A stretch of 17,589 nucleotides of DNA, from the NCBI GenBank assembly GCA_964533085.1, contig CAZHIY010000011.1, positions 1-17,589 of the forward strand, read 5' to 3'. Of this stretch, positions 2 to 17,093 are shown piece after piece (position 1 is the stretch's first letter; every line of letters starts with the position of its first letter). This DNA is from an uncultured Thermoplasmatales archaeon (lineage in GTDB: Archaea; Thermoplasmatota; E2; DHVEG-1). The notes below the pieces were generated by a model. That model saw only the letters and a program-made list of their open reading frames with translations. It searched no databases and was not told the DNA's origin. Position numbers and translations under genes: made by a program.

Positions 2-3000
2 CTTGATTGTTCAGCTTGTATTCTTACTCCTAAAATGGTTGATGTAGCCCGTCATCCTAACGTTGAACTTTTAACCTATTCTCAAGTTGTTGGAGTCGAT
101 GGTTATGTAGGCAATTTCAGTGTAAAAATCCAAAAGAATCCCCGGTATATTGATGTAGAAAAATGTACTGGTTGTGGTGAGTGTTTCGATGGCTGTCCAG
201 TTGAGATGCCAAATGAGTTTGATATGGGAAAAGGTACAAGACATGCAATATACACACCTTTCCCACAGGCTGTTCCACTAAAAGCAACAATCGATAAGCG
301 TGGTATGCATCCATGCAGAGATGTCTGTCCTGCTGGAGTTGGAGCACCTGGCTATGTAACACTTGTCGGTCGCGGTAAGTTTTATGAGGCCTTACGGGTA
401 ATTAAAGAACGTCTTCCATTCCCATCAGTTTGTGGAAGGGTATGTCATAGACCTTGTGAAGGTGCTTGTACCCGAAAAGATATTGACGAACCAATTGGAA
501 TTGCACATCTGAAACGGTTTGTTGGTGATTTAGAACTTCATATACCCGCAATGGAGAAACCTCCAATTGAGACTAGAGCAGAAAGTATTGCTGTAATTGG
601 GGGTGGACCTGCAGGTCTTACTGCTGCTCATGACCTCGCTCTTAAGGGATATCATATAACTGTATTTGAATCTGCACCTGTCTTAGGTGGTATGATGAGA
701 TGGGGCATTCCTGCTTTTCGTCTTCCAAAAGAAATAATCGAGCGTGAAATTTCAGATATTCTTGCTCTTGGTGTAAGGGTTCAACTCAATACTATGCTTG
801 GTAGGGATTTCACAATTCCAGATCTATTTAAACGAGGTCATAAAGCTGTCTTTTTAGCAGTTGGTGCGCAAAATGGAAAAAAGATGACCATTCCTGGTGA
901 GGAATTAGAGGGAGTATTCCAAGCAATTGACTTTTTAAAGGAAATAAATCTAGGAAAGATTATTTCCACTCCAATTGCAGAAATTGATGATGAACTTTGT
1001 ATTGGTTGTGGAAAATGTGCAGAAGCCTGCTACTTTGGAATAATTCATCTTGAACCTGATAAACTTGATCCGAAAAAACAGTATCCAACGATACATAAAA
1101 AATACCTATGTAAGGGCTGTGGTAAATGTGCTCGTGTTTGCCCCTCAAAAGCAATTAAACTTAGTGGTTTTAAAGATATTGCTCCTACAATTGGAAAGAA
1201 GGTTATGGTTATCGGTGGAGGTAATGCTGCACTTGATACTGCAAGGTCTGCATTAAGGTTAGGTGCCGAAGAAGTTGCTATTTTATATAGACGTACCCGT
1301 GAGGAGATGCCAGCAGAACCAGATTGGGAGATTGATGAAACTGAACTTGAAGGTGTTCAACTTGTTTATCTTGTTGCGCCAACGAAAGTAATTGGTGATG
1401 ACAAAGGTAGGGTAAAAGCAATAGAATGTGTAAGAATGGAGCTTCTTGATGAACTTGATAAAAGTAATAGACGTAGGATTAAACCAATTCCGGGCTCCGA
1501 GTTTACTCTTGATTGCGATAGTATAATTCTAGCAATTGGTCAAGAGGTTGATACTGATGTTTTATCAAAGGATGTTAAACTAGAAGTAACTCCATGGAGT
1601 TCTAAAAGAGTCGATCCTGCTTCGTTTCCAAAAAATGGAGTCGATGATATCGAATTGACACCCTGGAGCACTATCCACGCTGATCCTCTGACATTGCAAA
1701 CTAACATTAAAGGCGTTTTCAGTGGTGGAGATGCAGTATGGGGTGCCGGAACTATAATTGAGGCAATAGGTGCGGGAAAAGAAGCAGCAATATCAATTGA
1801 TAGGTATCTAAACGGGGAAGATATAAGAAAAGGACGTGAAGAAAAACCAGAAATCGCCAAGCCCTCTATTGAAGGCATTAGAAAGAAATCTAAAGTCCCA
1901 ATGCGATATATGAATGTTAAAGACAGAGTAAACAACTTCAAAGAAGTAGAACTGGGTTATACTGAGGAAGAGGCAATTGAGGAGGCTCAGCGTTGTTTAG
2001 ATTGTGGAGGGTGTTCTGAATGTTTCGAGTGCGTACAGACTTGTGAAGCTGGTGCAATTAATCATGATATGAAACCTGAGATAGTCGATGTTAATGTTGG
2101 AGCAATAGTTGTTGCAACTGGTTTTGACTTATTTGATCCATTAGCAAAACCTGAATATGGCTATGGTAAATACAAAAATGTAGTTACAGGTATTGAGTTC
2201 GAACGGTTGGTTTCTGCATCAGGTCCGACCAGTGGTCATATTGAGATAAAAGGTAAGGAACCAAAGAAGGTTGTTTTTATCCAATGTGTTGGTTCAAGAG
2301 ATAAAGAAACCAATGAATATTGTTCCCGTGTTTGTTGTATGTACACTGCTAAACAAGCTCATTTAGTAAAGGAAAAAATCCCAAATTCTGAACTGGTTAT
2401 ATATTACACAGATATGAGAGCCTTTGGTAAGGGCTTTGAGGAGTTTTATAATCGTGTTCAGGGAGAAGGTGTAACCTATAGACGTCGAGAGCTTGCTGAT
2501 CCAATTGAAGTAACAATGAAAGATGGAAAAACAATTGTAAAGGCTAAGGGACATCCTGATGTTGAAGCCGATCTTGTTGTACTTGCAACAGGTATTATTC
2601 CACGTTCAGACAGTCAGGAGCTCACTAGGATTTTAAATATTAATCAGAGTGCTGATGGATTCATGCTTGAAGCACATCCAAAGCTTCGACCAGTTGATAC
2701 CTTTACAGATGGTATTTTCCTTGCTGGTTGCTGTCAAAGCCCGAAAGATGTACCAGATACTGTTGCACAGGCTATGGGTGCTGCGTCTAGAGTAACTGAT
2801 ATTTTATCAAAGAAACAACTATTAATTGATGCAACTGTTGCAAATGTAAATGAGGCTTTGTGTCGTGGCTGTGGTATTTGTGTTGAGGCATGTCCTTATA
2901 AGGCTATCGAACTAACTGAAGTAGATCGTTTTGGTCATAGGGTACTAGTTGCAACAGTAAATGAAGCTCTCTGTAAAGGATGTGGTTCATGCTCTGCTGC

Positions 3001-3079
3001 TTGTTTAAATGGTGCCATAGGCCACCTTGGATTTACAGATGGTCAAATCCTTGCGATGATTAAGGCATTAGGGGATTGA
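2..3079 (+). CDS. HdrA-type heterodisulfide-reductase subunit A-like flavoprotein with embedded GltD/NfnB-like NAD(P)H oxidoreductase module and extra ferredoxin domains (5' partial, 'HdrL-like')
   Basis: The frame is open from base 2 (LDCSACILTPKMVDVARHPNVELL, the conserved HdrA DCSxCILxPKM motif). The gene therefore starts left of the window and the ATG at 35 in the ORF track is internal. HdrA hallmarks: CTGCGECFDGCP, PFPQAVP, VATGFDLFDP, FIQCVGSRD, CSRVCCMY, FLAGCCQSPKD, and a C-terminal 2x CxxCxxCxxxCP. A GltD/NfnB-type module lies between them: CGRVCHRPCEGACTR, IAVIGGGPAGLTAAHDLALKGY, GGMMRWGIPAFRLPKE, KVMVIGGGNAALDTARSALRLGA, GVFSGGDAV. Stop TGA at 3077-3079. Confidence 0.88.
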   Translation, partial: LDCSACILTPKMVDVARHPNVELLTYSQVVGVDGYVGNFSVKIQKNPRYIDVEKCTGCGECFDGCPVEMPNEFDMGKGTRHAIYTPFPQAVPLKATIDKRGMHPCRDVCPAGVGAPGYVTLVGRGKFYEALRVIKERLPFPSVCGRVCHRPCEGACTRKDIDEPIGIAHLKRFVGDLELHIPAMEKPPIETRAESIAVIGGGPAGLTAAHDLALKGYHITVFESAPVLGGMMRWGIPAFRLPKEIIEREISDILALGVRVQLNTMLGRDFTIPDLFKRGHKAVFLAVGAQNGKKMTIPGEELEGVFQAIDFLKEINLGKIISTPIAEIDDELCIGCGKCAEACYFGIIHLEPDKLDPKKQYPTIHKKYLCKGCGKCARVCPSKAIKLSGFKDIAPTIGKKVMVIGGGNAALDTARSALRLGAEEVAILYRRTREEMPAEPDWEIDETELEGVQLVYLVAPTKVIGDDKGRVKAIECVRMELLDELDKSNRRRIKPIPGSEFTLDCDSIILAIGQEVDTDVLSKDVKLEVTPWSSKRVDPASFPKNGVDDIELTPWSTIHADPLTLQTNIKGVFSGGDAVWGAGTIIEAIGAGKEAAISIDRYLNGEDIRKGREEKPEIAKPSIEGIRKKSKVPMRYMNVKDRVNNFKEVELGYTEEEAIEEAQRCLDCGGCSECFECVQTCEAGAINHDMKPEIVDVNVGAIVVATGFDLFDPLAKPEYGYGKYKNVVTGIEFERLVSASGPTSGHIEIKGKEPKKVVFIQCVGSRDKETNEYCSRVCCMYTAKQAHLVKEKIPNSELVIYYTDMRAFGKGFEEFYNRVQGEGVTYRRRELADPIEVTMKDGKTIVKAKGHPDVEADLVVLATGIIPRSDSQELTRILNINQSADGFMLEAHPKLRPVDTFTDGIFLAGCCQSPKDVPDTVAQAMGAASRVTDILSKKQLLIDATVANVNEALCRGCGICVEACPYKAIELTEVDRFGHRVLVATVNEALCKGCGSCSAACLNGAIGHLGFTDGQILAMIKALGD

Positions 3080-5650: not shown

Positions 5651-5899
5651 ATGGTAACAATAAAAGAAGTAAAAAGTACAATAGCCGTAGCTATTGCTGG
5701 TGCTTTTGGATTTATAATAGCTTTAATTTGGAAAGACATAATCATCGGTGCAATGAAAGTTTATGGTCTATGGCAAGATGGAGGATTTCCTGATGAAACA
5801 GCTTTGATAATCGGTATTGTAGTAGCAATAGTAATTACAATTGTTGCAGTTTTTGGTATCCTTTTCATAACAAAATGGGGCGGGGTAGAAAAAAAATAA
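5651..5899 (+). CDS. Small membrane protein, two predicted TM helices (function unknown)
   Basis: 82 aa. Two hydrophobic stretches: IAVAIAGAFGFIIALIW and LIIGIVVAIVITIVAVFGILFI. SD GGAGGT lies 6 nt upstream of the ATG. The GAFG-containing first helix loosely recalls MscL TM1 / DUF5654-type proteins, recalled from memory and not verified. Confidence 0.55.
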   Translation: MVTIKEVKSTIAVAIAGAFGFIIALIWKDIIIGAMKVYGLWQDGGFPDETALIIGIVVAIVITIVAVFGILFITKWGGVEKK

Positions 5900-5902
5900 A
5901 AA
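5889..5902 (-). terminator. Oligo-T tract downstream of tRNA-Gln(UUG) (archaeal-type terminator candidate)
   Basis: The minus strand reads TTTTTATTTTTTTT starting 14 nt after the tRNA 3' end. It overlaps the 3' end of the convergent small membrane-protein CDS. Confidence 0.35.
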
Positions 5903-5915
5903 TTATATCCTATAA

Positions 5916-5987
5916 CAGCCCTGAGCGGATTCGAACCGCTGTCGCTGGCTCCAAAGGCCAAAATGTTAACCGCTACACCACAGGGCT
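5916..5987 (-). tRNA. tRNA-Gln (anticodon UUG), no intron, CCA not encoded
   Basis: Minus-strand sequence folds as a cloverleaf: AGCCCTG TG GTGT AGCGGTTA ACAT T TTGGC CTTTGGA GCCAG CGAC AGCGG TTCGAAT CCGCT CAGGGCT G. 7-bp acceptor stem (A1-U72), anticodon loop C-U-UUG-G-A, T-loop TTCGAAT, discriminator G73. Confidence 0.93.
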
Positions 5988-6055
5988 ATTATATTTTTTA
6001 TTTTGGCAAATACAAATAATACTTATATACTTTTAACACTGATATCAAAATTTCT

Positions 6056-6220
6056 TTAATTCTTGTTTTGTTGCTGTTTTTGAATTTTTGCCCAAATATC
6101 CCTAAGAGTTGCTGTTCTGTTTATTATTAGTTTTTCATTTGTAGTATCTGGATCTATGCAGAAATAACCAAGACGTTCAAATTGAAATCTATCTAACGGT
6201 TTTAATTTTTTCAATTCTTG
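6056..6220 (-). other. glnS: In-frame continuation of glnS beyond the TAA at 6221-6223 (54 codons + TAA) encoding the conserved GlnRS C-terminus
   Basis: The codon directly after the TAA continues in the same frame: [54 protein letters not shown]. This matches the C-terminal end of bacterial GlnRS (E. coli ...[40 protein letters not shown], from memory). Confidence 0.85.
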
Positions 6221-7744
6221 TTAAATTTTACATGAATTGATTATTTCAAGTGAGTTGGGATTTAAAAAATCTTTAAAATCCTCATCTTTTTGTCCAGCTG
6301 GATCTTTTATTGTAAATAATCTTTCATAAAGTCGAACTTCAGCATCAATTGCACTTTCTGCTGATACCCAATGTATTGTTGCCCTTACCTTTCTTCCATC
6401 TGGTGCATATCCACCTTTTGTTGCGGGATCATATGTGCATCTTAACTCTATGATTTTATCATCTTTTTTAATTACTTCTTTGCATGTTATAAAATATGCA
6501 TACCTAAATCGTACCTCACGACCTGGAGCTAATCGATAGAACTTTTTTGGAGGATCCTCCATAAAATCATCTTGCTCGATATAAAGAACTTTTGAAAACG
6601 GAATTTTCCGCGTACCAGCATTTGGATCTTCCGGATTGTTAATTGCTTCGATTTCTTCTACTTGATCATCAGGATAATTTTCAATGACCACTTTTAATGG
6701 TCGTATTACACCCATAAATCGTAGGGCTGTTTTATTTAAATCCTCTCTAACAAAATGTTCAAGAAAATCAAAGTCGACCATGCTGTTTACTTTTGCTACT
6801 CCAATTCTTTTACAGAAATTCCTAATTGAGCTTGGAGAGTATCCACGTCTTCGCATACCAGAAATAGTAGGTAATCTTGGATCATCCCATCCCTTTACAT
6901 ATTTACCATCAACCAATTCTAGTAACATTCTTTTGCTCATTACTGTGAATGTTAGATTTAATCGGGCAAACTCAATTTGTTGTGGATGATATACATTTAG
7001 AGCATCAAGGAACCAATCATAAAGAGGTCTATGGTTCTCAAATTCAAGAGTACAGATAGAATGTGTTATACCCTCTATTGAATCTTCAAGACCATGTGCC
7101 CAGTCATACATTGGATAGATGCACCATTTATCCTTCGTGCGATGATGCGAAGCATGTAATATTCTATACATTATTGGATCCCGCATGTTAAGATTAGGAT
7201 GACTCATGTCAATTTTCGCTCGAAGTACTTTTTCTCCATCTCCAAATTCACCTGCTTTCATTCGGTCAAAAAGATTAAGATTTTCTTCTACACTCCGATC
7301 ACGATTCGGACTATTTTCTCCAGGAGTTGTTGTTGTTCCTCTATACCAAGAAATTTCTTCTGCGGATAAATCATCAACGTATGCTTTCCCGTCTTTTACT
7401 AGTTTTACAGCGTATTCATACATTTGATCAAAATAGTCTGAACCAAAAAGTAATCGGTCATCCCAATCAAATCCTAGCCATCGAACATTTTCAATAATTG
7501 ATTTAACATATTCCTCTTCTTCTTTTGTAGGATTTGTATCATCAAATCGAAGATTACACAAACCTCCATAATCCTCAGCAATTCCAAAATTTAAACAAAT
7601 AGACTTTGCATGACCGATATGAAGATAACCATTTGGCTCAGGCGGAAACCTTGTATGTACACGACCTTCATACTTATTGGTTTTTAAATCTTCATCAATA
7701 ATCTCTCGAATAAAATCTTTAGAAATATTATTTGTTTTTTGCAT
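6221..7744 (-). CDS. glnS: Glutaminyl-tRNA synthetase, bacterial type (as called, ends at an in-frame TAA; see 6056-6220)
   Basis: Class I aaRS motifs HIGH ([11 protein letters not shown]) and KMSKS-type (FTVMSKR). Long GlnRS-specific runs: [82 protein letters not shown]. The start is placed at ATG 7744 ([20 protein letters not shown]) because the longer ORF-track start (7831) reads through the upstream tRNA gene. Confidence 0.92.
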
Positions 7745-7773
7745 ATTTATTTCACTATCCCACCTTATTTCTA

Positions 7774-7845
7774 CAGCCCCGACCAGATTCGAACTGGTGA
7801 CTAGAGATCCAGAGTCTCTTATGTTAACCACTACACTACGGGGCT
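7774..7845 (-). tRNA. tRNA-Gln (anticodon CUG), no intron, CCA not encoded
   Basis: Minus-strand cloverleaf: AGCCCCG TA GTGT AGTGGTTA ACAT A AGAGA CTCTGGA TCTCT AGTC ACCAG TTCGAAT CTGGT CGGGGCT G. A1-U72, discriminator G73. Its 3' end lies 29 nt upstream of the glnS ATG. Confidence 0.93.
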
Positions 7846-7875: not shown

Positions 7876-7883
7876 CTATTTAA
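7876..7883 (-). promoter_or_regulatory. Candidate TATA box (TTAAATAG, preceded by an A-rich BRE-like CATTAAAGG) for the tRNA-Gln(CUG)/glnS transcription unit
   Basis: It lies 30 nt upstream of the mature tRNA 5' end in an AT-rich intergenic region. Pattern match only. Confidence 0.3.
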
Positions 7884-7941
7884 CCTTTAATGTTATTAAA
7901 TTTTTTTTAAAAATTTTAATACAAAACATAAATAAAAAAAT

Positions 7942-8412
7942 TTACAGTTTCCCTCTAGTTAGATCAAAAATCTCTAAATAAATTTTATATAAACAAAAAT
8001 TTCTATTAAAATGATAAATTATTGGAGATTTATTTAAGAACTTAAGTAGTAAGGAGCATATTATAATTCTATTTCTTGGAATTGTGACTTCCAATTCACC
8101 TAATTTACCCTCCTGATAAAAAATATCTTTTGCTTTAGCTTTAATTATGTATTTTCCCTTTTCAGTCCATGTATGACTTATAATTTCTTCTTCTCCTGAT
8201 TTGAAAGGTCCAACCCATTCCTCAATAGTACCATCCCCCCAATCAATCCAGAGATAAACATCATCTGAATCAGGATCTATTGATGAGAATGTAAAATTGT
8301 ATTCTTGGTCTACTTTACCAATTATTGGACCTTTAATTTTTGGTTTATTTGGTGGAAGGTTTAGGTCACCCCACGGATCCATTAAGGGGTACATGTCTTT
8401 ATTGTTCCCCCC
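7942..8412 (-). CDS. C-terminal part of a frameshifted NosD-like surface protein: PKD-like domain + hydrophobic tail
   Basis: From the G-run onward the frame reads GGNNKDMYPLMDPWGDLNLPPNKPKIKGPIIGKVDQEYNFTFSSIDPDSDDVYLWIDWGDGTIEEW...GELEVTIPRNR. This is the natural continuation of the upstream beta-helix ORF (NosD-like proteins typically read ...GG.N.D.YPL..PW). The upstream part of the 204-aa track ORF (8413-8556) is out-of-frame overlap, not real coding sequence. Confidence 0.7.
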   Translation of the reverse strand, partial: GGNNKDMYPLMDPWGDLNLPPNKPKIKGPIIGKVDQEYNFTFSSIDPDSDDVYLWIDWGDGTIEEWVGPFKSGEEEIISHTWTEKGKYIIKAKAKDIFYQEGKLGELEVTIPRNRIIICSLLLKFLNKSPIIYHFNRNFCLYKIYLEIFDLTRGKL

Positions 8413-9253
8413 CTGGTATGTAATATGGTGTATCGCCGATACCATCACCATCATTATCTGTACCATTATAATCGTTCCAGTAATTGCCACCAGATGGATA
8501 TCCATCGTCCCATATATTGTATGGACCTCCACGTTCAAAAGCTTGATATTCACCATTATTTACAAAGTTGTTATGATGAATTTTATTAAACTCTCCTCCA
8601 CCTTCGCACATATCCAATAGTATACCTTCTTCATCGTTTGATATAATATTGTTTGAAATAATATGGTTATACGCAGACATAATCATGTAAATCCCTCTGT
8701 TGTTTTCTGATATATTGTTGTGATTAATCAAATTGTGACTATGATGATTACTGCTTGTATGTTCTAAATGGATACCATCATTTGTGTTGGTTGATATATT
8801 GTTGTAAGAGATAATGTTGTTATCGCTATTTTCTATACCCATATATTGTATTCGAAACATAACACCATTACGGTTTTCAGTTAAAATATTATATTCTACA
8901 GCCCCATTTGTTACATTAATAAACACAATCCCATCATTTTGTATATCGCCATCAAAAATGTAACAGTTTATAATTTTAAAATACATACTTGTATTTCTGA
9001 TAGTTATGCCATCCTGAGAAGAGGCATATATCTCCCAGTTTTCAATAATATAAGGATTATTAGTAGTTCCAGATCCTCCTGTTACACCATTTTCACTTAT
9101 GAATTCGTCATTTCCATTGATATAAATCGGTTTATGAAGTGTATATGATGATTTATTAGAAGAAAAATCAGCATAACTAGCATTAAAAGTAGGTGAAAAG
9201 GCTAGATTGAATAAGAATAAAATAACAAATAATGCTAATAATTTCCTAACCAA
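8399..9253 (-). CDS. N-terminal part of a secreted right-handed parallel beta-helix (PbH1 / NosD-like) protein, truncated by a frameshift
   Basis: Signal-peptide-like N-terminus (MVRKLLALFVILFLFNLAFS). Repeated ~22-aa N/I/G-rich beta-helix repeats follow (NCYIFDG..., YNILTENRNGV, YNNISTNTNDGIHL, HNNISENNRGIYM, NNIISNDEEGILL, HNNFVNN). It ends GDGIGDTPYYIPGGEQ* directly at a G7 run. Confidence 0.8.
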   Translation of the reverse strand: MVRKLLALFVILFLFNLAFSPTFNASYADFSSNKSSYTLHKPIYINGNDEFISENGVTGGSGTTNNPYIIENWEIYASSQDGITIRNTSMYFKIINCYIFDGDIQNDGIVFINVTNGAVEYNILTENRNGVMFRIQYMGIENSDNNIISYNNISTNTNDGIHLEHTSSNHHSHNLINHNNISENNRGIYMIMSAYNHIISNNIISNDEEGILLDMCEGGGEFNKIHHNNFVNNGEYQAFERGGPYNIWDDGYPSGGNYWNDYNGTDNDGDGIGDTPYYIPGGEQ

Positions 9254-10964: not shown

Positions 10965-11168
10965 ATGGGAATCTATAAAATAATTGATATAGTTGGTACA
11001 TCAGATAAGAGCTTTGCAGATGCTGCTAGAAATGCTGTAATTGGGGCATCAAAAACTGTTAGAAAAATACGTAGAGCTGAAGTTACAAAACTTGATGTAA
11101 AGGTTGAAAATGACAAACCTGCTTTATTTAGGGCTGAAATGAAAATTTCCTTTGAAATTGAGAGATAA
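10965..11168 (+). CDS. Dodecin-family flavin-binding protein
   Basis: 67 aa. The pattern KIIDIVGTSDKSFADAARNAVIGASKTVRKIRRAEV...FRAEMKISFEI matches the dodecin family (..GTS..SF..A...A...A..T......EV......YR....ISFE). SD GAGGTGAT lies 8 nt upstream. Confidence 0.8.
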   Translation: MGIYKIIDIVGTSDKSFADAARNAVIGASKTVRKIRRAEVTKLDVKVENDKPALFRAEMKISFEIER

Positions 11169-11169
11169 A

Positions 11170-11178
11170 TTTTTTTTT
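11170..11178 (+). terminator. T9 tract immediately after the dodecin stop (archaeal oligo-T terminator candidate)
   Basis: TAA at 11166-11168 is followed by A then TTTTTTTTT. The tract overlaps the stop codon of the convergent larA-like gene. Confidence 0.4.
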
Positions 11179-12424
11179 AAGTTATTGGAATAGTCAGACT
11201 TCCAAATGGCATAACCACAACTTTTGGTTCATTTCCTTTAGATTTAATTATCTTTACTGCATCATCTACTGCAGTTTGAATATCTGAATATGGTTTCAAC
11301 ATAGCCTTTCTTACAATATCATCATCTAAATCAGTAACTGCCCACATATCAGCTCTGATACCGATCTGAGCCATTTTAGCTGCTTTATGATATCCAAGTT
11401 TATACTCTTCATCAAGTATTTCAAAGATTTTTTTGGGTGAATCTGCTTTACAAAGTAATTTTAGAAAACCATCCTCTCCAACACCGGTACGACATTTGGA
11501 AACAAGGATAATAACTCCATCATCTTCTAAGGCTAATTTACCATTATCTAATGCTTTTTGAGATTGATAAAGATCAATATCCATAGGATATGGAGCAGCA
11601 GATATTACAATGTTTCCTTTTTGTTTTAATGGAACACAAAATATTTGTTTAGAATATTTAATAGCTGCATCAAACGATTTATGTAAATCACCGGCTGTTA
11701 CAGCAAATAATTTATGATCACCGGTTAAGACCGTCTGAATAGAAAAAATATTTAGGTCCTTTAAAACATTCATTGCATCTACCATATCATCATTAACTGG
11801 ATTACCATCAAGAGCAAGAGAACATGCATCATCACTTAACGCAAGTTTATGGTTCATCTCAATTGTTTTATATGATGCAACGCCTGGTAAAAACGATTTT
11901 CTTCCACCAGTATAACCTGCAAAATAATGTGGTTCTACACTTCCTATAACAAGGATGTTTCTATATTCTGAAACTAGTTTGTTAATATACATCTCAGTTC
12001 CATTTTTTGACTTACCAAGATATGTCATATCTTCATCTTTACGAGCATCATGAGCATAAACCTTTCTTCTAAAAACATTGTAAGTATCGCCAAATATAAA
12101 CCTATATTCTTCTTCTGAAGGAGCCCGATGAACGCCTGTTGCTATTAGAAACTTAACATCAGGATGAGATGATAGTACTGGTAAAAGATATTTTAAAACT
12201 TTTGAGGTCGGAGTAGGCCTAGTTGCATCATTTATTATTACAAGTAATCTATCTGTATCTTCAGCAAATTCGTCATAAGATTCAAAGCCTATTGGATTTT
12301 CTAATGCTTCTTCTATCAATTTATTTTGATTTTCAATTGTAACTTTTTTTGGAACTAGAATCTCACAATTATCAGGAATATTGACTTTTATATTTTCTTT
12401 TCCATATGGTATATCAACTTCCAT
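11177..12424 (-). CDS. larA: LarA-family nickel-pincer-cofactor-dependent racemase/epimerase (lactate racemase-like, DUF2088)
   Basis: 415 aa. Motifs INDATRPTP, LIATGVHR and GSVEPHYFAGYTGGRKSFLPG (the conserved His/Lys region of LarA) over a colinear length. SD GAGGGAG lies upstream. Confidence 0.8.
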   Translation of the reverse strand: MEVDIPYGKENIKVNIPDNCEILVPKKVTIENQNKLIEEALENPIGFESYDEFAEDTDRLLVIINDATRPTPTSKVLKYLLPVLSSHPDVKFLIATGVHRAPSEEEYRFIFGDTYNVFRRKVYAHDARKDEDMTYLGKSKNGTEMYINKLVSEYRNILVIGSVEPHYFAGYTGGRKSFLPGVASYKTIEMNHKLALSDDACSLALDGNPVNDDMVDAMNVLKDLNIFSIQTVLTGDHKLFAVTAGDLHKSFDAAIKYSKQIFCVPLKQKGNIVISAAPYPMDIDLYQSQKALDNGKLALEDDGVIILVSKCRTGVGEDGFLKLLCKADSPKKIFEILDEEYKLGYHKAAKMAQIGIRADMWAVTDLDDDIVRKAMLKPYSDIQTAVDDAVKIIKSKGNEPKVVVMPFGSLTIPIT

Positions 12425-12477: not shown

Positions 12478-12500
12478 GAATCTTGTTATTCTATCGAATC

Positions 12501-13967
12501 ATGAAAAACTTCCATGTAGCAATTATTGGGGCAGGTGTAATAGGATCTTCTATTGCATGGGAGTTATCAAAATATAAGCTTGATGTTGTTGTTTTTGAGA
12601 AAGGAAGTGATGTTGCTTCTGGTACAAGTAAGGCCAATAGTGGAGTTATTCATAGTGGAATTAATTCTCCAGTATCTTCCTTAAAAGCTTGGTTTTGTGT
12701 TGAAGGTAACAAGATGCTTCAACCACTATCAGATTCTTTAGGTTTTTCACTTAAATGGATTGGAAAATATGTAATTGCGAAAAATGAGGATGAATTAAAA
12801 GAGCTTATTCGGCTTAAAAAAGTCGGTCAAGAAAATGGAGTTTCTGGTTTGGAAATTAAAGATAAAGATGAGGTTAAGGCAAAAGAACCAAATATACCAT
12901 GCTACAAAGCTTTATGGGTACCATCTGCAGGTATAATTTTACCATATGAATTTACAATTGCATTTGCTGAAAACGCTGCTATCAATAATGTTAATTTTTC
13001 ACTTGAAACAGAAGTCATAGACCTCCAGAAAAAAGAAAATAATTTTGTAATAAAAACTAACAAGGGAAAATTTCAGTCAAAAATATTAGTAAATGCAGCA
13101 GGATTAAATTGTAGAGATATTTTATCAATGTTACAAGAACCGGATTTTAATGTCTATCCATGTAGGGGAGAATATCTTGTTTTAGATAAAGCCTATAGCC
13201 ATATAGTTAAATCTATGATTTATCCAACCCCTCCAAAAAAACTAGGAGTTTTGGGTGTTCATATCACACCAACAATTGAAGGAAATATCCTTCTCGGGCC
13301 TAGTGCCGAGTTTGTTGATGATTCCAATAATAAAATTACTACAAAAAAAATGATGAATACTTTACTAAGGGAAGCAAAAGAAATTCTTCCAGGCTTACCT
13401 GAAAAAGCTATTATTAATGCATATTCAGGAATCAGATGCAAACTTGCCTCACCGGATGAGGGTGGATGGGCAGATTACAGAATTGAGGAAGGCAAAAAGA
13501 CACCTGATTTGATAAACCTTTTAGGAATTGAATCACCTGGTCTTACTGCTGCACCAGCTATTGCAAAAGAAGTTGTCAAGATGATATCAAAGTCTATTGA
13601 TTTAAAGACTAAAACTGATTTTAAATCTAAAAAAATTAAAAATAATCATTTTTTTGAAATGAGTTCCAAGGAAAAATCTGATTTAATAAAAAAAGATCAA
13701 AGATGGGGTAGAGTTGTTTGTAGATGTGAACATATTACAGAAGCTGAAATTTTTAATGCTTTAAAAAATCCCTTAAAAGCACAAACTCTTTCAGCTGTAA
13801 AGTATCGTTGTAGAGCTGGAATGGGCAGATGTCAGGGAGGATTTTGCACTCAGCATATTGTACGAATTATGGAAGAAGATTTTAATATTGATGTTAAAAA
13901 AATGAAATTAAAATCTTTAAAATCCAATCTTTTTTATGGTAGAACGCGGGAGAATCACAATGATTAA
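12501..13967 (+). CDS. FAD-dependent glycerol-3-phosphate dehydrogenase-like oxidoreductase (GlpA-like) with C-terminal BFD-like [2Fe-2S] domain
   Basis: N-terminal dinucleotide fold VAIIGAGVIGSSIAWEL...FEKGSDVASGTSKANSGVIHSG. C-terminal CRCEHITEAEI...RCRAGMGRCQGGFC (BFD-like Cys pattern). The start is placed at ATG 12501 rather than the TTG at 12483 in the track. Confidence 0.75.
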   Translation: MKNFHVAIIGAGVIGSSIAWELSKYKLDVVVFEKGSDVASGTSKANSGVIHSGINSPVSSLKAWFCVEGNKMLQPLSDSLGFSLKWIGKYVIAKNEDELKELIRLKKVGQENGVSGLEIKDKDEVKAKEPNIPCYKALWVPSAGIILPYEFTIAFAENAAINNVNFSLETEVIDLQKKENNFVIKTNKGKFQSKILVNAAGLNCRDILSMLQEPDFNVYPCRGEYLVLDKAYSHIVKSMIYPTPPKKLGVLGVHITPTIEGNILLGPSAEFVDDSNNKITTKKMMNTLLREAKEILPGLPEKAIINAYSGIRCKLASPDEGGWADYRIEEGKKTPDLINLLGIESPGLTAAPAIAKEVVKMISKSIDLKTKTDFKSKKIKNNHFFEMSSKEKSDLIKKDQRWGRVVCRCEHITEAEIFNALKNPLKAQTLSAVKYRCRAGMGRCQGGFCTQHIVRIMEEDFNIDVKKMKLKSLKSNLFYGRTRENHND

Positions 13968-15616: not shown

Positions 15617-15679
15617 AAATAAGATACAAATCTTGCAAAACTATAAATAATTAACACATGTTAATTGGAAGTGGTGTCT

Positions 15680-16207
15680 ATGGGTATCGTAGATTTGACT
15701 TCTATGGGGGAGTCACAGGTTAATCTTAGAAACGAAATAAATGAAAGATTATCAAGATTACAAGATGAAATATCTGATTATTGTTATCAATGTGCTAAGT
15801 GTACCTCGGGTTGTGAAGCTCATAAGTTACTTGAGCTTGAGCCACATAAAATTGTTGCTCTACTTAAAAGAGGTCTTATTGATGAGATGATTAATTCTGA
15901 TGTCATCTGGACTTGTATGAGTTGTTTTAAATGTCGTGAACGCTGTCCACAAAAAGTTGCTCCGGTTGAAATTTTATTTGCACTAAAAAACATGGCTGTT
16001 GCAAGTGGTAAACAGATACCTGGGAACTATACAGCAATGCTGCAGTCAGTTTTATCTATCGGTCTTTTACAAGATATAAAAAGTGTTACAACTCGTGATA
16101 ATAAGACAAAAAGTCGATCAGATTTTGGTCTTCCTGAAATTTCAAAACCAACTGATTCAACAAAATTTCAGATGATACTTTCAAAACTTGCAGTTGAAAA
16201 GGTTTAA
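15680..16207 (+). CDS. hdrC: Heterodisulfide reductase subunit C
   Basis: Two HdrC-type cluster motifs: CYQCAKCTSGCEA and CMSCFKCRERCPQ. ATG 15680 is preceded by GGAAGTGGTG. The TTG at 15665 in the track is less likely to be the start. Confidence 0.88.
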   Translation: MGIVDLTSMGESQVNLRNEINERLSRLQDEISDYCYQCAKCTSGCEAHKLLELEPHKIVALLKRGLIDEMINSDVIWTCMSCFKCRERCPQKVAPVEILFALKNMAVASGKQIPGNYTAMLQSVLSIGLLQDIKSVTTRDNKTKSRSDFGLPEISKPTDSTKFQMILSKLAVEKV

Positions 16208-16220
16208 GGGAGGTTTTTTA

Positions 16221-17093
16221 ATGAAAAGTTACGTGCTTTATCCCGGTTGCGTGATGCCAACCGAACAATATGCATATGAAATGTCAATTCGAGAAGTTTT
16301 TCCATTTCTAGATATAAAACTTGTAGATCTAAAGGATTTTTCTTGTTGTGGAGAACCTATTAAAAGCGTTAATCAAATGTTAGCTCTTGCATTATCCGCA
16401 AGAAATATTGCAATTGCCGAAAAAGAAGGCCTTGATATATTTGCTCCATGTCCAATGTGTCATTTGGCTCTTAGTGAAAGTAAAAGAATTCTTGATGCAG
16501 ATCCTGCTATGAAGGAAAAGATAAATAAGTTTCTTGCTGACGAAGGATTATCGTACAATGGTAAATCTGTTATTGTAAATACCCTTGATCTTCTATATGA
16601 CATTGTTGGTATTGATAAAATAAAGAATCTCGCCAAGAAACCCTTAAATGATCTCAAAGTTGCTACTCATTATGGATGTCATTTGATTAGACCAAGTGAA
16701 ATTGGTCGTCCAGATGACTCAGAAAATCCACAAAAAATGGAAAAAATACTTGAAGCAATTGGTGCAAAACCTATTGATTATCCAGAAAAACTTGATTGTT
16801 GTGGTGGATTATTAAATGCAAACCTTCCTGAATCAGCTCTTACTAAAACCGGTCAGAAACTTCAGAAAGTTCAAGAGCAAGGTTTTGATGCTTTTATTGA
16901 TACTTGCCCTTGGTGTCATCGTCAATATGATTCCAAACAAACCAAAGCAGGTGAAATTGTTGCTGCAAAACTGGAAGTTCCTGTTTTTTATCTAACTCAA
17001 CTCATAGGACTTTCATTTGGTATTTCTAGTGAAAAGCTTGGTCTTGATTTAAATCTGAGCCCCGTTGATAAACTTAATCTTGGAGGTAAATGA
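16221..17093 (+). CDS. hdrB: Heterodisulfide reductase subunit B (two CCG domains)
   Basis: MKSYVLYPGC..., then CCG motifs FSCCGEP ... CPMC and LDCCGG ... CPWC. SD AAGGGAGG lies 6-8 nt upstream of ATG 16221. The TTG at 16188 in the track would overlap hdrC and span the SD. Confidence 0.9.
   Translation: MKSYVLYPGCVMPTEQYAYEMSIREVFPFLDIKLVDLKDFSCCGEPIKSVNQMLALALSARNIAIAEKEGLDIFAPCPMCHLALSESKRILDADPAMKEKINKFLADEGLSYNGKSVIVNTLDLLYDIVGIDKIKNLAKKPLNDLKVATHYGCHLIRPSEIGRPDDSENPQKMEKILEAIGAKPIDYPEKLDCCGGLLNANLPESALTKTGQKLQKVQEQGFDAFIDTCPWCHRQYDSKQTKAGEIVAAKLEVPVFYLTQLIGLSFGISSEKLGLDLNLSPVDKLNLGGK

Follow-up and report, generated by a model that had tools for sequence, protein, structure and literature searches.

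The stretch of DNA analysed here (the window) comprises 17,589 nucleotides of contig CAZHIY010000011.1, assembly GCA_964533085.1, from an uncultured Thermoplasmatales archaeon. Its minus strand carries a gene for glutaminyl-tRNA synthetase (GlnRS), glnS, which is bracketed by the genes of its two substrate tRNAs, tRNA-Gln(CUG) and tRNA-Gln(UUG). Reviews published in 2021-2022 consider GlnRS to be missing from every known archaeon, an absence that they explain by the incompatibility of archaeal tRNA-Gln, with its A73 discriminator and A1-U72 pair, with the bacterial and eukaryotic enzymes (PMC9499178, PMC8007984). The evidence presented below makes it probable that this conserved cluster arose by a single acquisition of a bacterial glnS beside native tRNA genes bearing G73, both of which the enzyme would charge directly with glutamine, and that the GatDE amidotransferase of the indirect pathway was probably replaced in this clade.

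Both tRNA genes were recognized by ARAGORN and by the Rfam tRNA model (gathering score 29). tRNA-Gln(CUG) lies at 7774-7845 (65.5 bits) and tRNA-Gln(UUG) at 5916-5987 (62.7 bits), each 72 nt long and on the minus strand, in agreement with the positions given by an initial annotation made from the sequence alone. They are the only tRNA genes called by ARAGORN in the window, have no intron, do not encode CCA and represent both isoacceptors. The first combines A1-U72, G2-C71, C3-G70, G10 and G73 with the anticodon loop CUCUGGA; the second has A1-U72, G73 and the loop CUUUGGA, so that the archaeal-type acceptor end noticed in the initial annotation is seen in both. In each cloverleaf 21 of 21 stem pairs are standard, and seven pairs differ on both sides between the two genes, which identifies them as diverged isoacceptors, as previously proposed. 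The glnS ATG (7744-7742) follows G73 of tRNA-Gln(CUG) after exactly 29 nt, the distance already reported; this spacer (7745-7773, minus strand) contains the Shine-Dalgarno-like AGGTGG/AGTGA and no run of five or more T. At the other end of the gene, the frame-extended stop (6054-6056) is separated by 66 nt from A1 of tRNA-Gln(UUG): the gene order had been given correctly, and the 68 nt stated for this gap had been counted from position 6056. Two points had been passed over, namely the G73 of both tRNAs and an in-frame TAA at codon 508 of glnS.

The product of glnS is, as judged by profiles and residues, a bacterial-type GlnRS. In the open reading frame (ORF) between the tRNA genes, Pfam recognizes the catalytic domain of class I Glu/Gln synthetases along with both domains for anticodon binding. 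Codons 1-507 (6224-7744, minus strand) encode the catalytic and most of the anticodon-binding domains (PF00749, PF03950, PF20974), and codons 509-562 with the stop (6054-6220, minus strand) encode a conserved C-terminus that includes positions 48-69 of PF20974 and the equivalents of E. coli Q517 and R520. The 507-aa fragment by itself scores 677.7 bits with the NCBIfam equivalog TIGR00440 (EC 6.1.1.18; cutoff 425.8). In a profile search of the window glnS product, all glutamyl-tRNA synthetase (GluRS) models stayed under their own cutoffs, the archaeal one giving 358.8 bits on the fragment for a cutoff of 401.75. Among PDB sequences, phmmer ranked the GlnRS of P. aeruginosa (702 bits) and E. 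coli (680) above the human enzyme (475) and a second long eukaryote-type chain (424). This ranking and the TIGR00440 score confirm the earlier assignment to the bacterial type lacking an N-terminal extension. The window enzyme and 30/30 archaeal GlnRS share the HIGH and MSK motifs and, in E. coli numbering, the Gln-binding residues R30, Y211, C229 and Q255; the anticodon-reading residues R341, R402, R410, Q517 and R520 are likewise kept in all 30 archaeal enzymes; in the window, the last two fall 3' of the premature TAA. The archaeal enzyme thus shares with bacterial GlnRS (E. coli GlnS, PDB 1GTS/1QTQ; P. aeruginosa, 5BNZ) its length, its domain order, the absence of an N-terminal or YqeY extension, and all catalytic, Gln-binding and anticodon-reading residues. 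It differs by its archaeal host and by its substrates, in which A1-U72 (or G1-U72) replaces U1-A72 and C3-G70 replaces G3-C70.

A search for archaea-specific substitutions at tRNA-contact residues yielded three diagnostic columns, none of them at a recognised contact. The equivalent of E. coli Asp235, the residue reading the minor groove at pairs 2-71 and 3-70, is Asn in 30/30 archaeal GlnRS, in contrast to the E. coli enzyme. The same Asn is found in the planctomycetal neighbours and in 14 of the 73 sampled bacterial GlnRS, the nearest ones included; being common to those neighbours, it was inherited from the donor with the gene and is not an archaeal innovation. In E. coli, the glnS7-type mutants D235N and D235G, reportedly described by Perona and colleagues in 1989, are said to be mischarging enzymes of relaxed specificity. 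The archaeal enzymes naturally carry the residue of the first of these mutants, with the difference that theirs is derived from a donor. In the few bacterial loci showing both enzyme and tRNA, Asp235 is associated with G3-C70 and Val with C3/U3. A donor enzyme with Asn235 may have been easier to transplant.

The contig is archaeal, by homology and collinearity, and belongs near the genomes of the Thermoplasmatales archaeon SG8-52 type. The best matches of glnS are proteins of 560-566 aa, 82-94% identical, and those that are named appear as glutamine--tRNA ligase of Thermoplasmatales archaeon (SG8-52-1 included) or as glutaminyl-tRNA synthetase from JGI. Three of the genes reside on complete chromosomes of 1.82, 1.92 and 2.32 Mb (the glnS-bearing genomes CP070712.1, CP070798.1 and CP070724.1), and the window is collinear with a contig of GCA_030672305.1 at 86-88% nucleotide identity. 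The archaeal assignment made initially is upheld by these labels, which are Thermoplasmatales archaeon for the closest homologues and the three complete genomes alike, and by the archaea-specific gatDE genes of relatives.

The order tRNA(CUG)-glnS-tRNA(UUG) recurs in the related loci L081 and L083. The complete genomes L084 and L085, which are more distantly related, have it as well, amid a wholly different set of flanking genes. Scanning metagenomes with the 56 nt at the 3' end of tRNA-Gln(CUG) gave 29 contigs, which were pooled with the other loci. In 26 of the 32 informative loci glnS begins 28-42 nt past tRNA-Gln(CUG), and tRNA-Gln(UUG) lies downstream of glnS in 13/13 loci with enough sequence. 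Apart from a T16/C16 difference, the tRNA-Gln(CUG) of the window is the tRNA found beside glnS in L081-L085 and in the 29 metagenome contigs. Since the arrangement recurs in dozens of independent contigs with differing flanks, chance is not an issue: sediment Thermoplasmatota related to SG8-52 form a clade in which this sandwich is the normal layout. In deeper-branching members, a tRNA-Glu(UUC) gene is also found just downstream of tRNA-Gln(UUG) (L085, 12747-12857; L084, 13107-13181; L106, 6336-6410); that of L085 begins 9 nt past tRNA-Gln(UUG), contains a 39-nt intron and is not called by ARAGORN. A scan of a genome collection with the GlnRS protein gave, among the matches listed, bacterial loci only, which provided material for comparison. 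Among 60 bacterial glnS loci examined, a tRNA-Gln gene was present within a few kb (about 5 kb) in 6, and the same-strand tRNA-glnS-tRNA sandwich in none. The bacterial cases hint at a loose general linkage of glnS with tRNA-Gln genes. In E. coli K-12, glnX, glnV, glnW and glnU are located about 9 kb from glnS (L119, 696430-707757).

Six of the informative loci are exceptions to the tRNA-glnS spacing. In the sixth, L107, tRNA-Gln(CUG) has gatE upstream and glnA downstream. The other five (L088, 1-270; L098; L112; L113, 1838-3250; L114) contain an integrase element that separates glnS from tRNA-Gln(CUG), inserted right at the 3' terminus of the latter; these elements share a conserved end and an opposite-strand gene for a 456-aa tyrosine recombinase (PF00589). 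From the upstream flank to the very 3' end of the tRNA, L088 and L096 match at 100%; from that point one continues into the element and the other into glnS, and L114 and L090 behave alike. With these identical flanks, the paired contigs represent an occupied and an empty site of a single population. Elements of this family also occur 3' of tRNA-Gln(UUG) in L094 and L104, so that glnS lies between two attachment sites of one integrase family. An arrival of glnS by way of integrase elements that target both tRNA-Gln genes is therefore a possible scenario. A scan of viral contigs with the tRNA 3' end gave no matches that would type the element as a virus.

The origin of the enzyme was investigated with a neighbour-joining tree (50 bootstraps) of 30 archaeal GlnRS, 72 bacterial GlnRS taken from the fetched loci, and the E. 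coli enzyme. The archaeal sequences are monophyletic in 50/50 bootstraps and nested among the bacterial ones, beside Pirellulales, Scalindua, another planctomycete and a Sumerlaeota genome, which agrees with the horizontal acquisition of glnS suggested by the initial annotation. Archaeal and bacterial enzymes are at most 74% identical to each other, while identities among the archaeal ones go no lower than 77%. The glnS of the window has a GC content of 0.34 and a third-position GC content (GC3) of 0.195, like its neighbours, to be compared with a GC3 of 0.45-0.75 in the nearest bacterial genes. The position of the archaeal clade inside the bacteria, combined with this host-like composition, indicates one old transfer from bacteria to archaea, followed by vertical descent and adjustment to the base composition of the host. 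The donor is tentatively placed nearest to the Planctomycetota. Some sequences of this dataset deserve a separate mention. P0001 (ENA contig, 6552 nt) encodes a GlnRS of 832 aa in which about 270 residues are duplicated internally, an oddity that probably stems from the assembly. P0095, P0103 and P0213 are among the members of the archaeal GlnRS or GatE clades that bear odd labels (Petrotogales bacterium, Bacteroidetes bacterium, Glutamate--tRNA ligase) and look mis-binned or mis-annotated.

The enzyme is the only foreign part of the cluster. In L120, an archaeal locus with the order PEPCK-gatD-gatE-(CoA-binding gene)-tRNA-Gln(CUG)-glnA, the tRNA-Gln(CUG) is identical to the glnS-linked tRNA (in the T16C form of L081) at all positions except A73. 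In L122, the glpA-like, larA and dodecin genes are collinear, relative orientations included, with window positions 13225-10950 (70.7% nucleotide identity), and the region beyond dodecin reads PEPCK-gatD-gatE-tRNA-Gln(CUG)-glnA. The tRNA-Gln(CUG) gene is therefore found in the same neighbourhood in both kinds of genomes, flanked by gatDE and glnA in one and by surface-protein genes and glnS in the other, which reads as an in-place exchange of the enzyme forming Gln-tRNA beside a resident tRNA gene. With their A1-U72 pair and archaeal CU(C/U)UGGA anticodon loop, both flanking tRNAs are native archaeal molecules by these comparisons, and not imported ones. The indirect archaeal route, in which a non-discriminating GluRS acts with GatDE, leads to the same product, Gln-tRNA-Gln, on the same tRNA body, and in the relatives gatD and gatE adjoin the orthologous tRNA-Gln(CUG); the present locus differs by having a one-step ligase gene beside the tRNA and neither gatD nor gatE.

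Several details of the GatDE loci concern this layout. The tRNA-Gln(CUG) gene abuts gatE in the GatDE-carrying relatives (L107, 853-926; L122, 7904-7907), and in L107 the gatE stop codon TAG (924-926) overlaps the first two bases of the tRNA. The placement of an enzyme gene beside its substrate tRNA thus already exists in the indirect pathway. The gatE of L122 (6001-7904) is split into a 555-aa ORF and a 79-aa ORF with a GatB_Yqey tail; the split may be real, as the 555-aa form represents a cluster of 3 sequences. The tRNA-Gln(CUG) of L122 carries G73 and A37.

The discriminator is the tRNA position that sets the glnS-linked copies apart from L120. G73, the discriminator on which E. coli GlnRS depends, is found in 33/33 CUG tRNAs of the glnS lineage and in the 10/10 UUG tRNAs listed. 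A73, regarded as universal or ancestral for archaeal tRNA-Gln (PMC9499178, PMC13433404), occurs in L120 and is absent from both window tRNAs and from all glnS-linked copies. Position 1 of the glnS-linked tRNAs is A or G and position 72 always U, so that the first pair is weak in every one of them. When compared with the identity set of E. coli GlnRS, which consists of G73, U1-A72 (weak), G2-C71, G3-C70, G10, U35 and G36 (PMC13433404), the window tRNAs agree at G73, G2-C71, G10, U35, G36 and the weak 1-72 pair, the orientation of the latter being reversed, and differ at 3-70, which is C3-G70 in both. As G73 is also found in copies linked to gatDE, it was probably a standing variant among GatDE users that took away the obstacle to employing a bacterial GlnRS, and is better read as a pre-adaptation later fixed in GlnRS users than as a change forced by the enzyme. 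It is conceivable, if somewhat short of probable, that the clade exchanged GatDE for a bacterial GlnRS and that the A73-to-G73 variant circulating among GatDE users made this exchange possible. If so, the intermediates would still be extant: A73 with gatDE (L120), G73 with gatDE (L107, L122), G73 flanking glnS (the window), and decayed UUG pseudogenes with A73 (L084, L085). The latter (L084, 11740-11812; L085, 12401-12473) are tRNA-Gln(UUG)-like sequences located between glnS and the functional G73 tRNA-Gln(UUG), and combine A73 with a tRNA-Glu-like D-arm, many broken pairs and scores of 30.5 and 19.8 bits.

The arrangement of the expression signals suggests two transcription units. A putative B recognition element (BRE)/TATA promoter, AAAGGTTAAATA, matches the motif at 7877-7888 (minus strand), its TATA ending 31 nt upstream of A1 of tRNA-Gln(CUG), and nearly all glnS-linked loci have the BRE/TATA-like sequence AAAG(G/A)TTA(T/A)ATA at this same distance (about 31 nt) ahead of the CUG tRNA. 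In archaeal promoters the TATA box is centred near -26. A second putative BRE/TATA promoter, AAAAGTATATAAG, at 6022-6034 (minus strand), has a TATA ending about 35 nt upstream of A1 of tRNA-Gln(UUG), and a TATA-like box occurs about 35 nt upstream of the UUG tRNA in 10/10 loci listed. On the 3' side of the latter gene, the oligo-T tract TTTTTATTTTTTTT (5889-5902, minus strand) is a likely archaeal terminator, and T-tracts of a similar kind follow tRNA-Gln(UUG) in L081, L083, L092 and L109. The tRNA-glnS spacers of the relatives measure 28-42 nt; in them, GGTGA/GAGGT-like motifs precede the ATG by 5-9 nt, and no T-run is longer than 4. It is accordingly rather likely, on this geometry, that one promoter drives tRNA-Gln(CUG) together with glnS and that tRNA-Gln(UUG) is a separate unit. 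Under this model the promoter about 31 nt upstream of the CUG tRNA would yield a tRNA-glnS co-transcript, from which RNase P and RNase Z would free the tRNA and leave a glnS mRNA with a leader of about 28 nt bearing the Shine-Dalgarno motif; tRNA-Gln(UUG) would use its own promoter and its oligo-T terminator. The thrU-tyrU-glyT-thrT-tufB operon of E. coli is a tRNA-mRNA co-transcript of this kind. Other co-transcripts, those of mitochondrial tRNA punctuation (PMC3790967) and the dicistronic ones of plants (PMC8166872), likewise place a tRNA directly before a protein gene with no terminator between them, so that the tRNA-processing nucleases would create the 5' end of the mRNA. Here the co-transcript is predicted from the sequence, and the protein differs from those examples in being the synthetase of its own co-transcribed tRNA. 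Some of the 40-nt spacers fold into a hairpin of 4-5 bp (TCTCT-TAACCAC-AGAGA) with apparent compensatory changes (spacers of L087, L095, L101 and L111 being concerned); a conserved hairpin was rejected, as the sequences of L087, L095 and L111 pair and others do not.

Several observations weigh against parts of this picture. The window tRNAs have C3-G70, G37 and A38 where E. coli has G3-C70, A37 and U38. The GatDE-linked tRNAs of L107 and L122 are already G73, so that this base is not specific to GlnRS users, and the organisms of these two loci might carry both systems. The GlnRS tree is a neighbour-joining one, with a biased bacterial sample and no eukaryotic outgroup. The co-transcription, likely as it is, rests on geometry and motifs; many tRNA-glnS spacers open with a TATA-like sequence, and the integrase elements inserted between the tRNA and glnS in five loci imply that glnS is separable from the tRNA promoter. 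Finally, the GatE listing that speaks for a loss of GatDE covers the best 120 homologues, down to 69% identity to the L107 protein, and a PriS search meant as its calibration was filled by matches of at least 70% identity with none of the complete genomes among them, so that it carries no information on this point.

The last point concerns the fate of GatDE. Its replacement by GlnRS is favoured here, with some caution. No gatD, gatE or glnA genes, nor decayed remnants of them, were found in 237 kb of glnS-lineage loci, and gatD and gatE are absent from the window as well as from the position syntenic with L122. The alternative, in which GlnRS would be an accessory and redundant route in genomes that keep a non-discriminating GluRS and GatDE elsewhere, is rather unlikely and yet has arguments of its own: GatDE-carrying relatives with the same G73 tRNA exist (L107, L122), a second route would make the disruption of the window glnS tolerable, and the absence of GatDE covers loci and the best 120 GatE matches rather than whole genomes. 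It is opposed by the lack of gatD and gatE at the syntenic position and throughout the 237 kb, by the strict conservation of glnS with both linked tRNAs, and by the three complete glnS genomes: these do not appear among the best 120 GatE homologues, whereas CP070751.1, a complete Thermoplasmata genome of the same CP0707xx series, does, with a gatD-gatE cluster in the order gatD-glnA-gatE.

About as unlikely is a second alternative, that glnS is transcribed independently, as a leaderless or short-leader mRNA, from a promoter situated within the end of the tRNA gene or overlapping it, the proximity of the two genes reflecting nothing but an insertion site. Most spacers do begin with a TATA-like sequence right after G73, for instance TATAAATAGG in L081, integrative elements between tRNA and glnS are tolerated in five loci, and empty and occupied sites exist with 100% identical upstream flanks. 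However, in the spacers of 28-29 nt a TATA at positions 1-8 would set the start at or beyond the ATG and exclude the Shine-Dalgarno-like motif from the mRNA, the distance from TATA to ATG varies from 20 to 34 nt, and no BRE-like A-rich sequence was found in the tRNA 3' end. A single shared promoter is therefore the simplest solution.

The integrity of the window gene has to be considered as well. The glnS of the window is not an intact ORF, in contrast to those of its relatives, which are intact at 560-566 aa: an in-frame TAA occupies codon 508 (6221-6223, minus strand), where the window reads TAA CAA and the relatives GAA CCA. In consequence, the 561/562-aa GlnRS of the window is a reconstruction. 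In 15/15 aligned relatives covering the site, codon 508 is GA[A/C] (Glu, once Asp), followed by CCN or TCA. Only two substitutions are found at the site, and the 54 conserved C-terminal codons continue in frame after it. The identity to L083 is equal on both sides of the TAA, and hence there is no sign of an assembly chimera at this position. In assembly SG8-52-1, the contig LSSD01000017.1 (L082) ends within glnS, at its position 1, no more than 5 nt from the window TAA (6216-6226), which suggests a spot that is hard to assemble. A second lesion is located 2 kb away, in a NosD/PKD-like surface-protein gene (7942-9253, minus strand) that an additional G in a run of this base (GGGGGGG, against GGTGGG in L083) breaks up into overlapping ORFs of 284 and 204 aa; in the relatives the gene is undivided and measures 417-423 aa. 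As the TAA is found in the window only, leaves the frame beyond it intact, has a +1 G lesion nearby and lies close to the end of the SG8-52-1 contig, it is most likely a local assembly or sequencing error. That the gene is a genuine pseudogene, with a real nonsense mutation in a decaying cluster, is improbable. The TAA would indeed remove the equivalents of Q517 and R520, and a second disrupted gene is close by, but a decaying gene fits poorly with a site limited to two substitutions, with 54 conserved in-frame codons downstream, with 15/15 relatives intact at codon 508, and with a sister-assembly contig whose end hints at local assembly trouble.

Much weaker is the idea, put forward in the initial annotation, that the enzyme and both tRNAs were acquired together from a bacterium as one module. 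Tight gene linkage, the bacterial character of G73 and the occurrence of a tRNA-Gln within a few kb of glnS in 6/60 bacterial loci speak for it, and it is nonetheless very improbable, because bacterial tRNA-Gln (from E. coli and the bacterial loci) has U1-A72, different bodies and often an encoded CCA, and because the flanking tRNAs here have A1-U72, match the GatDE-linked archaeal tRNA except at position 73 and stand in their ancestral chromosomal neighbourhood. The identity with the tRNA of L120 and the synteny with L122 thus replace the acquired module by an enzyme gained beside resident tRNAs. The comparison with pylT-pylS cassettes leads to the same view. They too have the genes of the substrate tRNA and of the synthetase adjacent on the same strand; there, however, tRNA and enzyme travel together, and here the shared origin and joint movement of such a mobile cassette are not seen, since the enzyme is bacterial, the tRNAs are native and both isoacceptors flank the gene. 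Last, a readthrough or recoding of the TAA (alternative code, programmed readthrough), which the conserved frame past the stop might suggest, is hardly credible and was rejected, as TAA is the ordinary stop of 8 of the 14 other window genes, no relative has a stop at codon 508, and no suppressor tRNA was found by ARAGORN among the window tRNAs.

The remainder of the window was surveyed for context. The neighbouring genes are hdrA/B/C-like, larA, dodecin, glpA-like and PKD/NosD surface-protein genes; those serving as the synteny anchor were identified with Pfam as dodecin (10965-11168, plus strand), larA (11177-12424, minus strand) and glpA-like (12483-13967, plus strand). The gene at 35-3079 codes for an HdrA-like fusion of 1014 aa that combines several 4Fe-4S and FAD/NAD domains, and has a GC content of 0.40 against 0.31-0.36 across the remaining window; hdrC/B-like genes are found at the opposite end (15665-17093). 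Compared with L083 (2826-4163; 8657-9761) and L082, two genes are missing from the window: one of 357-359 aa, Pfam-negative, between glpA-like and larA, the other GGR_cat-like, 338 aa long and placed immediately ahead of the tRNA promoter.

Archaeal genomes with a gene annotated as GlnRS have been mentioned before. One source, citing Di Giulio 2020, speaks of 'almost all archaea' being without GlnRS (PMC8762117), and a GlnRS gene is mentioned in Heimdallarchaeia (bioRxiv 10.1101/2024.07.04.601786); in their accessible parts, these reports concern gene presence alone and do not describe flanking tRNAs, the discriminator or a Thermoplasmata clade. A literature search combining GlnRS with Thermoplasmata or Thermoprofundales found nothing specific. 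The possibility raised by the initial annotation, that such loci are common and already annotated in this lineage, turned out to be true in part: such loci are the norm in this clade, and NCBI and JGI already list the enzyme as GlnRS, but no paper describing the cluster was found. As far as searched, the two-tRNA sandwich, the native origin of the tRNAs, the contrast between G73 and A73, and the syntenic swap are undescribed.

The presence of a bacterial-type GlnRS in a Thermoplasmata-group archaeon contradicts the textbook view that archaea lack this enzyme. To account for the fact that GlnRS never became established in archaea, a tRNA-Gln orthogonality barrier has been proposed (Tumbula et al. 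2000, as related in PMC9499178). The clade indicates that this barrier has been crossed and points to the discriminator as the tRNA position that mattered, the tRNA bodies being identical otherwise. If the tentative A73-to-G73 exchange outlined above is correct, the clade would provide a natural counter-example to the barrier and a direct test of it. Because related genomes use either route beside the same tRNA gene, they form a matched natural experiment on the transplantation of a synthetase across domains, on shifts of tRNA identity sets and on the retirement of indirect aminoacylation. These enzyme-tRNA pairs may also serve as orthogonal pairs in genetic-code engineering.

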